A DNA stretch of 64,000 nt from Escherichia coli (GTDB lineage: Bacteria; Pseudomonadota; Gammaproteobacteria; Enterobacterales; Enterobacteriaceae). Position numbers and translations under genes: made by a program. The DNA is taken from NCBI RefSeq assembly GCF_003018255.1, contig NZ_CP027440.1. One strand, written 5' to 3'. Shown here one piece after another: positions 4,534 to 20,630 of this stretch (position 1 is the first letter of the stretch; each line of letters begins with the position of its first letter). The notes below the pieces were generated by a model that was not told the DNA's origin, ran no database searches, and saw only the letters and a list, made by a program, of their open reading frames with translations.

Positions 4534-5979
4534 ATGCTCGTGGCCCAACACACCGTTTATTTCCCGGACGCCTTTCTGACACAAATGCGCGAAGCGATGC
4601 CTTCGACGCTCTCTTTTGATGATTTTCTTGCCGCCTGTCAGCGCCCGTTGCGCCGCAGCATTCGCGTTAATACGCTGAAAACCTCCGTTGCTGATTTCCT
4701 GCAATTAACTGCTCCTTATGGCTGGACGCTTACGCCAATTCCGTGGTGTGAAGAAGGTTTCTGGATTGAACGCGACAGTGAAGATGCATTGCCGTTGGGT
4801 AGTACCGCCGAGCATTTAAGCGGCCTGTTTTATATTCAGGAAGCCAGTTCAATGTTGCCTGTTGCCGCCTTGTTTGCTGACGGTAATGCACCACAGCGGG
4901 TGATGGATGTCGCTGCCGCGCCCGGCTCCAAAACGACGCAAATTGCCGCGCGGATGAATAACGAAGGGGCAATCCTTGCCAATGAGTTTTCCGCCAGTCG
5001 GGTAAAAGTGTTACATGCCAATATCAGCCGCTGTGGCATCAGTAATGTTGCGCTCACGCATTTTGATGGCCGCGTATTTGGTGCGGCAGTGCCAGAAATG
5101 TTCGATGCCATTTTGCTGGACGCTCCCTGCTCCGGCGAAGGCGTGGTGCGTAAAGATCCCGATGCGCTAAAAAACTGGTCACCAGAAAGCAATCAGGAAA
5201 TCGCAGCGACCCAACGGGAACTGATCGACAGCGCCTTTCATGCATTACGTCCTGGCGGTACGCTGGTTTACTCGACCTGTACCTTAAACCGGGAAGAAAA
5301 CGAAGCCGTTTGCCTGTGGCTGAAAGAGACTTATCCCGACGCAGTAGAGTTTTTACCGCTTGGCGATCTCTTCCCTGGTGCAAACAAGGCGCTGACCGAG
5401 GAAGGCTTTTTGCATGTTTTCCCACAAATTTACGACTGCGAAGGCTTCTTCGTTGCTCGTCTGCGTAAAACTCAGGCGATTCCCGCCTTACCCACCCCAA
5501 AATACAAAGTGGGCAATTTCCCGTTCAGCCCGGTGAAAGATCGCGAAGCCGGACAAATTCGTCAGGCGGCTGCAAGTGTTGGCTTAAACTGGGATGAAAA
5601 CCTGCGACTCTGGCAGCGTGACAAAGAACTGTGGTTGTTCCCGGTGGGCATTGAAGCCCTGATCGGTAAAGTCCGATTTTCTCGCTTGGGGATTAAACTT
5701 GCCGAAACGCACAACAAAGGTTATCGCTGGCAGCATGAAGCCGTTATTGCCCTTGCCTCCCCCGACAATGTGAACGCTTTTGAACTGACACCGCAGGAAG
5801 CGGAAGAGTGGTATCGCGGGCGCGATGTTTACCCGCAAGCCGCGCCAGTAGCGGATGATGTATTGGTTACTTTCCAGCATCAGCCGATTGGTTTAGCCAA
5901 ACGGATTGGTTCGCGACTGAAAAACAGCTACCCGCGTGAACTGGTGCGCGATGGGAAACTTTTTACCGGTAACGCCTGA
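4534..5979 (+). CDS. rsmF: 16S rRNA m5C1407 methyltransferase
   Basis: 481 aa ORF with SAM-binding motif ([11 protein letters not shown]) and Sun/NOL1-type catalytic region (DAPCSGEG). Matches RsmF/YebU. Confidence 0.9.
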
Positions 5980-6096: not shown

Positions 6097-6333
6097 ATGA
6101 AAACCAGTGTGCGCATAGGCGCTTTTGAAATCGACGACGGCGAATTACACGGCGAATCGCCGGGTGATCGAACGTTAACCATTCCTTGTAAATCAGACCC
6201 CGATTTATGTATGCAACTGGATGCCTGGGATGCTGAAACCAGTATTCCTGCCCTGCTAAATGGCGAACACTCTGTCCTTTACCGTACCCGTTACGATCAA
6301 CAATCTGATGCCTGGATTATGCGTCTTGCCTGA
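6097..6333 (+). CDS. yebV: Small uncharacterised protein YebV
   Basis: 78 aa from MKTSVRIGAFEIDDGELHG; position between rsmF and pphA as in E. coli. Confidence 0.7.
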   Translation: MKTSVRIGAFEIDDGELHGESPGDRTLTIPCKSDPDLCMQLDAWDAETSIPALLNGEHSVLYRTRYDQQSDAWIMRLA

Positions 6334-16430: not shown

Positions 16431-17072
16431 TTACAGCTTAGCGCCTTCTACAGCTTCACGCGCCAGCTTAGTAATGCGGTCGTAATCGCCCGCTTCCAGC
16501 GCATCTGCCGGAACCAGCCAGGAACCACCGATGCACAGCACGCTTTTCAGCGCCAGGTAGTCACGGTAGTTAGCCGGAGAAATACCACCTGTCGGGCAGA
16601 AACGGACCTGGGAGAACGGACCCGCGATCGCCTGCAGGGCTTTCACACCGCCGTTAGCTTCAGCCGGGAAGAATTTGAACTCTTTCAAACCGTAGTCCAT
16701 ACCCAGCATCAGTTCGGAAACAGTGCTGATCCCCGGAATCAGAGGAATAGTCCCTTCGGTAGCAGCTTTCAGCAGCGGCTCGGTCAGACCCGGGCTAATT
16801 GCAAACTGTGCACCCGCTTCAGTGACTTCTGCCAGCTGCTGTGGATTCAGCACCGTACCGGCACCCACAATCGCTTCAGGCACTTCTTTGGCGATAGCAC
16901 GGATAGCGTCAACTGCGCACTCGGTACGCAGAGTCACTTCCAGAACGCGCACCCCACCAGCAACCAACGCTTTTGCCATCGGCACCGCGTGTTCCAGTTT
17001 TTTTACCACGATAACCGGTACAACCGGGCCGGTGGTCAGGATTGATTCTGCACTTGTTTTCCAGTTTTTCAT
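16431..17072 (-). CDS. eda: KDPG / KHG aldolase
   Basis: 213 aa. Matches Eda. Confidence 0.9.
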
Positions 17073-17108: not shown

Positions 17109-18920
17109 TTAAAAAGTGATACAGGTTGCGCCCTGTTCGGCACCGGACAGTTTTTCACGCAAGGCGCTGAATAATTCACGTCCTGTTCCCACGCGTGACG
17201 CGCTCAGGTCAGGAATGTGTGGTTCGCGAGCAGCCAGTTCCGCTTCGTCTACCAGCAGCGTCAGTTCGCCTGTCTGTCCATTCACACGAATGATGTCCCC
17301 GTCGCGCACTTTTGCCAGCAGCCCGCCATCGTAGGCTTCTGGTGTTACGTGGATAGCTGACGGCACTTTACCTGAAGCGCCGGAGAGTCGTCCATCAGTA
17401 ACTAACGCAATTTTGAAACACCGGTCCAATAATACACCAAGTGGCGGCATGAGTTTATGTAATTCTGGCATTCCGTTCGCTTTTGGCCCCTGATGACGGA
17501 CAACAACGACACAATCGCGGTCCAGCAAACCCGCTTCAAAGGCCGGCATAACGTCATGCTGGCTTTCAAAAACAACCGCAGGCGCTTCAATCACCTGGTT
17601 CTCTACCGGCACGGCAGAGGTTTTCATAACCGCACGGCCCAGGTTACCGCTTAACACTTTTGTCCCACCATGATGAGAGAAAGGTTGTTCGAAGGAAGCG
17701 ATCACATTGCTGTCGAGTGATTTTTCCGCCCCTTCCCGCCAGTCCAGTTCACCATTATTCAGCCATGGTTCAAGGGTATAACGAGACAGACCAAAGCCTG
17801 CCACCGTATTGACATCTTCATGCAGCAGGCCTGCTTTGAGCAGTTCACGCACCAGAACCGGTACGCCACCTGCCGCCTGGAAGTGGTTAATATCGGCCGG
17901 ACCGTTCGGGTAGAGACGTGCCATCAGCGGTACAACATCAGAAAGGTCAGAGAAGTCATCCCAGTTAATCTGAATACCGGCTGCGCGCGCCATCGCCACC
18001 AGGTGCATGGTGTGGTTAGTGGAACCACCGGTCGCCAGCAGTGCAACGATACCGTTCACCACCACTTTCTCATCGATCATCTTACCGATCGGCATCCATT
18101 CATTACCATTACCGGTCATGCGCGTAACCTGGCGCGCAGCTGCAGCGGTCAAAGCATCGCGCAGCGGAGAATCCGGATGAACAAAAGAAGAGCCTGGCAA
18201 CTGCATCCCCATAAACTCCACCACCATCTGGTTGGTGTTGGCAGTACCGTAGAAAGTACATGTTCCCGGCGCATGATAAGACGCGGCTTCTGACTCCAGT
18301 AGTGCCATGCGGTCCACTTTACCTTCGGCATAAAGCTGGCGAATACGCACTTTTTCTTTATTTGGCAAACCGCTTGCCATCGGTCCAGACGGCACAAACA
18401 CCGCAGGCAAATGCCCAAACGACAGGGCTGCCATCGTCAGACCCGGGACAATCTTGTCGCACACACCGAGGAACAGAGCACCATCAAACATGTTATGGGA
18501 CAGCCCCACCGCCGCAGACATCGCAATCACTTCGCGGCTTAACAGCGACAATTCCATTCCATCCTGCCCCTGGGTGACACCATCACACATCGCCGGAACA
18601 CCGCCTGCAACCTGACCAACCGCATTTGCTTCATGCAGGGCTTTACGAATGATTTCTGGATAGTGTTCATAAGGCTGGTGCGCGGAGAGCATGTCGTTAT
18701 AGGAGGTGATGATGGCGATATTGTTACGCAACATGCTTTTCAAAGAGGCTTTGTCTTCTGGCTGGCAGGCAGCGAAACCGTGTGCCAGGTTACCGCATGC
18801 CAACTGCGAACGATGAACGGTCGAAGTTTTCGCTTGTTCTATCCGGGCGAGGTAAGCAGAGCGAGTCTCGCGCGAACGTTCAATGATTCGATTTGTTACA
18901 CGTAACAATTGTGGATTCAT
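17109..18920 (-). CDS. edd: Phosphogluconate dehydratase (Entner-Doudoroff)
   Basis: 603 aa from [16 protein letters not shown]; IlvD/Edd family; the ORF track has a 22-codon extension. Confidence 0.9.
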
Positions 18921-19114
18921 AAAGGCTCCTGAAATTGAGTTGTCAGAGCAGGATGATTCACAACACGTTTCATTCAGAGGATTCATGACTGAAACGCCTG
19001 TAACCGGAGCTCATAGGGCAAAAACGTTTCAGTCAGTGTAATAAAAAAAGCCTCGTGGGTGAATCCGCACGAGGCCTGAAAGTGTAAAAATTGTTCTACA
19101 ATCTGTGCAAGATC

Positions 19115-19130
19115 ATGTTACCGGTAAAAT
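19115..19130. promoter_or_regulatory. Candidate GntR operator upstream of edd
   Basis: ATGTTACCGGTAAAAT, a near-palindrome resembling the GntR site ATGTTACCGGTAACAT, about 195 bp upstream of the edd start. Confidence 0.4.
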
Positions 19131-19154
19131 AACCATAAAGGATGAGCGCAGATA

Positions 19155-20630
19155 TTACTCAAACTCATTCCAGGAACGACCATCACGGGTAATCATCGCC
19201 ACTGAGGCAACGGGTCCCCAGGTTCCGGCCTGATACGGTTTCGGCGCATCATTGTCCATCGCCCACGCCTCAGTAATGGAGTCTACCCATTTCCAGGCTT
19301 CTTCCACTTCATCGCGACGTACGAACAGTGCCTGAATACCACGCATGGTTTCCAGCAGCAGACGTTCATAGGCATCTGCCAGATGCGTTTGATTAAAGGT
19401 TTCTGAATAGCTCAGATCCAGCTTGGTGATTTGCAGGTTATGTTTATGGTCAAGGCCAGGAACTTTATTTAGTACCTGGATATCCACGCCTTCATCAGGT
19501 TGCAGACGGATAGTCAGTTTATTCTGCGGCAGATCCTGCCACGACTCTTTAAACAGATTCAGTTCAGGTGTTTTGAAATAGACCACGACTTCAGAACATT
19601 TGGTCGGCAGACGTTTACCAGTACGCAGGTAGAATGGCACACCGGCCCAGCGCCAGTTATCAATGTCGACGCGGATCGCCACGAAGGTTTCTGTATTGCT
19701 GCTCTTGTTCGCGCCCTCTTCTTCCAGATATCCCGGCACTTTTTTGCCCTGGGCGAAGCCCGCAGTATATTGCCCGCGTACGGTTTTTTCGCGCACGTTG
19801 GAGCGGTCAATGCGGCGCAGAGACTTCAGTACTTTCACTTTTTCATCGCGGATGCTGTCTGCACTCAGGTCAGACGGCGGAGACATCGCAATCATGCAAA
19901 GAATTTGCAGCAGGTGGTTCTGGATCATGTCGCGCATCTGACCGGCTTTATCAAAATAGCCCCAGCGCCCTTCGATCCCCACTTCTTCTGCCACGGTAAT
20001 CTCAACATGATCAATGGTGCGATTGTCCCAGTTATTCACAAACAGGGAGTTAGCAAAACGCAGCGCCAACAGGTTCAGCACCGTTTCTTTACCAAGATAG
20101 TGGTCGATACGGTAAACCTGGCACTCCTCGAAGTATTCGCCAACCTGATCGTTGATTTCCTGCGAGGTCGCCAGCGACGTCCCCAGCGGTTTCTCCATGA
20201 CTACGCGTGCCGGTTTAGCATTCAGTTTTGCCTCACCAAGCCCTTTGCAAATTGCGCCAAAAGTGCTGGGCGGCATGGCAAAGTAGTTAATGGTGATACG
20301 ATTTTTTTGATCCAGCATCGCGCCGAGACGGCTGAATGCAGCAGTGTCATTGACATCGAGATTACAAAAATCCAGACGTGCACTCAGGGTGTCCCATAAA
20401 CCTTCATCAATGGTTTCTTTCATGAAAGTTTCGAGCGCCTCGCGGACAACTTTGGTATAAGCCGCTTTATCCCAGTCAGCACGCCCTACGCCGATAATCC
20501 GGGTGTCCGGGTTGAGCTGACCGGCTTTTTCCAGTTGATACAGGGAAGGCAGCAATTTACGACGCGCAAGGTCGCCTTTCGCGCCGAAAATGACCAGGTC
20601 ACAGGCCTGGGCTGTTTGCGTTACCGCCAT
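19155..20630 (-). CDS. zwf: Glucose-6-phosphate 1-dehydrogenase
   Basis: 491 aa [33 protein letters not shown] with the RIDHYLGKE active-site motif. Confidence 0.95.

Follow-up and report, generated by a model that had tools for sequence, protein, structure and literature searches.

How the Entner-Doudoroff operon edd-eda is brought under gluconate control from the short DNA between zwf and edd is the question raised by this locus. The window, which is the whole stretch of 64,000 nucleotides of E. coli DNA analysed here, has the gene order purT (+), eda (16431-17072, -), edd (-), zwf (-) and hexR (+). According to the open reading frame list and an annotated E. coli record, edd (17109-18920, minus strand) encodes 603 aa and is the first gene of the regulated operon, and its Shine-Dalgarno sequence AGGAG, seen in the sequence and with GAGG conserved in the alignment, lies at 18926-18930 on the same strand. 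The open reading frame list, the sequence and the annotated record, which is 99.9% identical, likewise place zwf at 19155-20630 on the minus strand, and its stop codon TAA occupies 19155-19157 (open reading frame list and sequence). When a 701-bp query covering the zwf-edd junction (18700-19400) was searched against complete E. coli genomes, 5,425 of the 5,426 gave a match with a best identity of 99.9%, which was found with strains JNE23-011 and JNE112863. Edd (17109-18920) is 100% identical to Edd of the Escherichia whittamii representative genome, from which the window differs in the zwf-edd intergenic DNA. An Rfam search of 18700-19400 returned zero matches.

The initial annotation had marked a GntR-like operator at 19086-19154, about 25 bp past the zwf stop and about 195 bp upstream of edd. 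This span contains the motif but is wider than the motif itself, a 16-mer at 19115-19130 (listed without strand; hereafter O1) that was assigned by dyad match, matrix score and conservation, and both distances agree with our count of 24 nt from O1 to the zwf stop codon and 194 nt from O1 to the edd ATG. O1 reads ATGTTACCGGTAAAAT on the plus strand and ATTTTACCGGTAACAT on the gene (minus) strand, with one mismatch to the perfect palindrome ATGTTACCGGTAACAT (15/16 positions). We defined a GntR operator as a 16-bp dyad with half-sites TGTTAC and GTAACA flanking a central 4 bp, and this is the structure found in O1, which also agrees with the published GntR consensus ATGTTACCCGTAACAT at 14 of 16 positions. 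Allowing up to three mismatches to ATGTTACCGGTAACAT, O1 was the only match in the 64 kb, where 0.10 was expected. A position weight matrix scan for GntR, the check that had been proposed, was carried out with a matrix trained on five other K-12 sites (two at gntT, two at gntK, and idnK/D; O1 excluded), and O1 ranked first among all 16-mers of the 64-kb window with 19.7 bits, above the maximum of 18.8 bits reached in 200 shuffles of the window. The third-ranked match (5960-5975) scored 11.6 bits, which is within the chance range. In addition, the gntT and gntKU operators share the 16-bp dyad ATGTTACCSRTAACAT with edd. The pattern was matched three times, against 0.16 expected, in the 45 kb of K-12 sequence that surround gntT and gntRKU, and these matches sit only upstream of gntT (one) and gntK (two, overlapping); the idnD-idnK spacer of K-12 has a weaker copy of the GntR motif.

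For the conservation of O1, edd loci were taken from 80 Enterobacterales species, comprising 60 Enterobacteriaceae and 20 more distant species. O1 was present upstream of edd in all 60 Enterobacteriaceae species, at a distance of 197-220 bp from the ATG, and the core TTAC-GGTAACAT was invariant in all of them. In the alignment of 61 sequences, TTAC-GGTAACATGATCT is invariant, and the adjoining spacer varies freely. In 46 of 59 species, the spacing from O1 to the start of the edd-eda promoter P1 (described below) is 93.5, and in the other 13 it deviates by no more than 1 bp. The pentamer GATCT immediately 3' of O1 (19110-19114, minus strand; alignment columns 23-27) is invariant in all 61 sequences as well; it includes a Dam GATC site, its role is unexplained, and it was not found beside the gntT or gntK operators and does not belong to the GntR motif of either. 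A different arrangement was seen in the 20 species outside Enterobacteriaceae (Serratia, Yersinia, Rahnella, Proteus, Xenorhabdus, Erwinia and others), in which zwf lies upstream of edd in one locus only (L072). Where these species have GntR sites, the sites are found either at -78 to -160, as singles or as doublets with a spacing of 14-15 bp, or 600-950 bp upstream; some of the species have no GntR site in the range searched.

The protein that would bind O1 calls for one correction of terms. The description "GntR-like" is right for a site of the E. coli protein GntR and wrong for the GntR family: E. coli GntR consists of a LacI helix-turn-helix (PF00356) and a periplasmic-binding-protein fold, is listed in the LacI family, and did not show the GntR-type winged helix (PF00392). 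It is a LacI-family repressor and does not belong to the GntR winged-helix family. The flagged feature is already known as the GntR control of the edd-eda promoter P1. Repression of P1 by GntR and its induction by gluconate are established in the literature, the Entner-Doudoroff pathway is activated when gntR is deleted or mutated (PMC9648032; PMC6637570), and the binding of such 16-mers by GntR is sensitive to gluconate and is abolished when 2 bp are inserted at the centre (PMC10450161). A full-text literature search with the sequences of O1 and of O2, the second site described below, retrieved cloning primers only, and individual edd sites were absent from a RegPrecise-based supplement. The K-12 edd-eda P1 is the same locus with a few bases different from the window; the operator, the promoter TTCACC-17-TACACT and a start 109 nt upstream of edd are shared, and beside O1 the window has TTGCAC where K-12 has TTGCGC. 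We take the window locus to be RegulonDB eddp, the known K-12 edd-eda P1, and this promoter and its GntR control were reportedly described by Egan et al. in 1992 and by Murray and Conway in 2005. Gluconate-responsive control of edd-eda, as proposed in the initial annotation, is thus borne out by the consensus match, the gluconate-regulon motif, the conservation and the published effect of gntR loss, and O1 is supported by its sequence as a genuine GntR operator controlling edd-eda.

The promoter itself had been expected in the zwf 3' flank, and this is where it was found. In K-12, the operon b1851|b1850 has a transcription start at 1934713 by SMRT-Cappable-seq of cells grown in glucose or rich media and without gluconate (PMC6131387 supplement). 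Mapped through the K-12 sequence, this P1 start is an A at 19029 (minus strand); the zwf 3' end precedes it by 14 nt, and the edd ATG follows 109 nt later. The edd-eda promoter is listed as TTCACC-17-TACACT, and the spacer binds RpoD holoenzyme in vitro (PMC3946193). In the window, the -35 hexamer TTCACC is at 19058-19063 and the -10 hexamer TACACT at 19035-19040, both on the minus strand, and TTACACT is invariant or nearly so in the alignment. The two hexamers are 17 bp apart and the start lies 6 nt past the -10, as expected of a sigma-70 promoter (5-8 nt).

The same DNA also carries the intrinsic terminator of zwf (19043-19077, minus strand), formed by a hairpin (19077-19048) and a run of seven T (19049-19043). 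The RNA of 19036-19100 folds with -21.9 kcal/mol (z = -6.3), and the stem has compensatory changes in 6 of 12 pairs, with 42 double-change cells compared with 7.5 in shuffles, none of 500 of which reached 42. Transcripts of zwf in K-12 start at 1936374 and have their 3' end at 1934727; 14 of the 41 reads end at this position, and 4 read through (PMC6131387 supplement). This 3' end corresponds to 19043 in the window, so the hairpin, the covarying stem and a 3' end in the U-run together identify a Rho-independent terminator. A consensus promoter and terminator scan of 18800-19300 had found nothing, because the P1 hexamers match the consensus at 8 of 12 positions and the threshold was 9, and because the stem contains a mismatch and the loop is over-long; this negative result was overruled by the evidence from the start site, the 3' end, the folding and the covariation. 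While the stem covaries, the terminator loop GGATTCACC is near-invariant, and this loop together with the TTACACT block places the P1 -35 in the terminator loop and makes the T-run a part of the promoter spacer. P1 is therefore superimposed on the zwf terminator. Over the P1 start, a Cra (FruR)-like operator CTGAAACGTTTTTG spans -3 to +11 (19019-19032, minus strand) with 10 of 14 positions in agreement with the Cra motif cTGAAtCGaTTCAg (PMC5888115), and the conserved block of the alignment at this site is CTGAAGCGATTTTG. Cra has been reported to repress edd-eda by binding at a place that overlaps the polymerase site or comes after it, and the position of this operator agrees with such reports.

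The position of O1 relative to P1 is the less obvious part of the question. Within the zwf 3' UTR, O1 comes after the stop codon and ahead of the terminator; it spans -101 to -86 with its centre at -93.5, about 94 bp upstream of the P1 start. No GntR site was found over -35 to +20 of P1, where it could directly occlude RNA polymerase, and this geometry argues against simple occlusion. A conserved partner of O1 inside edd had been missed in the initial annotation. This second GntR-type site, O2, occupies edd codons 5-9 (18893-18908, listed without strand) and was assigned by its matrix rank and by codon conservation; it reads TTGTTACGTGTAACAA on the gene strand and spans +122 to +137 with its centre at +129.5, which is 222 bp from the centre of O1 in the window. 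O2 scored 15.9 bits, which is rank 2 in the window and above the second-best match of every shuffle, and its K-12 version, with CGC at the centre where the window has CGT, scored 19.3 bits. Between O1 and O2, the best GntR-like site in the matrix scan reached only 2.4 bits. Another candidate partner of O1, the weak half-site CTCCGGTTACAG near +23, was rejected, with a matrix score of -4 bits or less and no conservation.

The O2 part TGTTACGNGTAAC was invariant in 60/60 Enterobacteriaceae, and Leu6 was TTA and Val8 was GTA in all 60 species, both being rare codons. In contrast, the third base of Arg7, which is the centre of O2, varies (CGC in 41 species, CGG in 18 and CGT in 1). Such freezing is seen in only 6 of the 305 codons of edd that are conserved and 4- or 6-fold degenerate. 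In all 20 species without the upstream O1 arrangement, O2 was absent and these codons were variable; O1 and O2 co-occur and are gained and lost together across the species. Part of the conservation of O2 could come from the Leu-Arg-Val-Thr peptide or from constraints on translation initiation. With window ranks 1 and 2, O1 and O2 thus form the pair of operators flanking a promoter that repression by a loop requires.

Another frozen cluster was seen in edd codons 496-503 (17412-17435), which read GTA TTA TTG GAC and then TTC AAA in the 60 species. These codons coincide with the internal eda start (K-12 1933106), which is preceded by TATTAT, and start sites lie nearby at window positions 17422 and 17358. 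Just downstream of the internal eda start, TGTTTCAAAAT may be the KdgR box of eda P2, as we presume.

Since neither GntR site lies over the core promoter, an indirect mode of repression (a loop or a roadblock) is indicated, and the status of O1 as an operator is unaffected; for the same reason, O1 is proposed to work with O2. We propose, with a probability of about 60%, that O1 is the GntR operator for edd-eda and acts together with O2 on P1 by a loop and/or a roadblock. GntR dimers on O1 and O2 would enclose P1 in a 222-bp loop, as in gal, and GntR at O2 may additionally stop elongation from P1 and from zwf read-through; gluconate would then release GntR and free P1. Cooperation of O1 and O2, through looping and/or a roadblock, is inferred as the likely mechanism. 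The more specific statement that P1 in Enterobacteriaceae is repressed by the bracketing pair O1 (-93.5) and O2 (+129.5) and not by occlusion, from a promoter fused with the zwf terminator, is possible but somewhat doubtful, and we put it forward tentatively.

Several observations weaken the two-operator model. The O1-O2 distances range from 209 to 232 bp and are grouped at 209-214, 218-223 and 232, and the phasing has p of about 0.05-0.07 when distinct values are used, the species not being independent. GntR (331 aa) aligns to LacI only through residue 316 of the 360 LacI residues, and the missing LacI segment includes the C-terminal tetramerisation helix. As GntR has no counterpart of this helix, a loop would depend on some other contact between dimers or on a helper protein. 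Furthermore, the P1 start was mapped in non-inducing media.

Among known systems, the arrangement at edd resembles that of gal, where the two operators OE and OI flank a promoter that is left uncovered and one of them is inside the first structural gene, likewise as at edd. GalR and GntR are both LacI-family dimers that lack the tetramerisation helix of LacI, and tetramerisation and looping have been reported for GalR. However, the gal loop is about 113 bp and requires HU, whereas the edd operators are 222 bp apart and the loop is proposed here from sequence. Within the gluconate regulon, gntT of K-12 also has two separated sites, 141 bp apart; one is said by Peekhaus and Conway (1998) to lie over the -10 and the other near +120, with looping proposed, whereas neither site at edd touches the core promoter. 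For gntT, the SMRT-Cappable data list no start site that could be compared. The pair of sites at gntK is 13 bp apart and overlapping, beside the gene start, in contrast to the separated sites of edd. Intragenic roadblocks by LacI-family proteins are also known, for example PurR at purB and CcpA at cre sites. Like these sites, O2 is located inside a gene, some 130 nt after the start, and by analogy a LacI-type repressor bound at O2 could stop elongation; O2 differs from them in being paired with an upstream site. In K-12, a GntR/IdnR-like sequence ACTTTACCGATAACTT with 14.5 bits was also observed inside idnD (6196-6211 of locus L083), 311 bp from the idnD-idnK intergenic site, which hints that intragenic distal partner sites may be a habit of the gluconate regulon.

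The closest competitor to this model keeps O1 as the sole operator: O1 would repress P1 from -93.5, for example through DNA bending or by preventing contacts of upstream DNA or of the alpha-CTD, and O2 would be kept for coding or translation. O1 does outscore O2 in the window (19.7 and 15.9 bits), its spacing to the promoter is rigid while the P1-O2 distance varies by 23 bp, and the Leu-Arg-Val-Thr peptide is conserved in itself. However, a lone LacI-type dimer at -93.5 is outside the usual reach of RNA polymerase, and rare TTA and GTA codons frozen in 60/60 species around a free central base fit a DNA site and not a peptide. O2 also vanishes exactly where O1 does, and in K-12 it reaches 19.3 bits, and we consider repression by O1 on its own unlikely. 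A further possibility would be a chance match of the O1 palindrome with no regulatory role, for which the short length of the motif speaks and nothing else. One match with a single mismatch where 0.10 was expected at up to three, a score above those of all 200 shuffles, and a core that stays invariant in 61 sequences amid a variable spacer refute this origin, and we give it practically no weight.

Two further explanations assign O1 to a target other than P1. O1 could control a separate gluconate-specific promoter, TTGCAC-18-TACACT (19110-19081), with a start at the foot of the hairpin and the centre of O1 at about -47. These promoter-like hexamers adjoin O1, the stretch from O1 to the hairpin is nearly free of indels across the 61 sequences, and a start used only in gluconate might be missed in data from non-inducing media. 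On the other hand, the hexamers, separated by 18 bp, match at no more than 7 of 12 positions and are not conserved, TTGCAC being replaced by TTGCGC in K-12 and by TAACAC or TGACGC elsewhere; the transcript would include the entire zwf terminator, the invariant elements belong to the downstream P1, and no start is reported there (PMC6131387 supplement). As the main promoter this candidate was rejected, since its hexamers are not conserved and it has no reported start, and a gluconate-specific role for it is improbable. Alternatively, O1 could act mainly on zwf, with GntR in the 3' UTR blocking polymerase ahead of the terminator and thereby limiting read-through into edd. The location of O1 within the zwf transcription unit, between stop codon and terminator, suits this idea, as does the passage of 4 of 41 zwf reads beyond the terminator. 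Such a block would nevertheless be largely redundant with an efficient-looking terminator 40 bp further on, and it leaves the gluconate induction of P1 and the existence of O2 unexplained; we regard it as very improbable as the main function of O1. Joint action of O1 and O2 on P1 is therefore the reading that we retain.

The two-operator arrangement also has practical consequences. In a published strain, eddp1 was replaced with pTrc, and the homology arms keep O1 and O2 (PMC4172795), so the engineered promoter is still bracketed by both GntR sites. Strains in which only the P1 core is swapped may stay under GntR control. O2 explains the rare codons 6 and 8 of edd, and these codons should not be "optimised". 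For annotators, the locus shows how signals can be stacked, with an operator in a 3' UTR, a promoter in a terminator and an operator in codons.

In conclusion, the flagged site belongs to the textbook gluconate switch of the Entner-Doudoroff operon and is nothing new in itself. If O2 and its partnership with O1 are undescribed, the edd-eda operon would illustrate a gal-type loop or a roadblock in a clean natural setting, and, if the model is true, the codons of edd would provide a case in Enterobacteriaceae of measurable codon freezing imposed by a repressor site.
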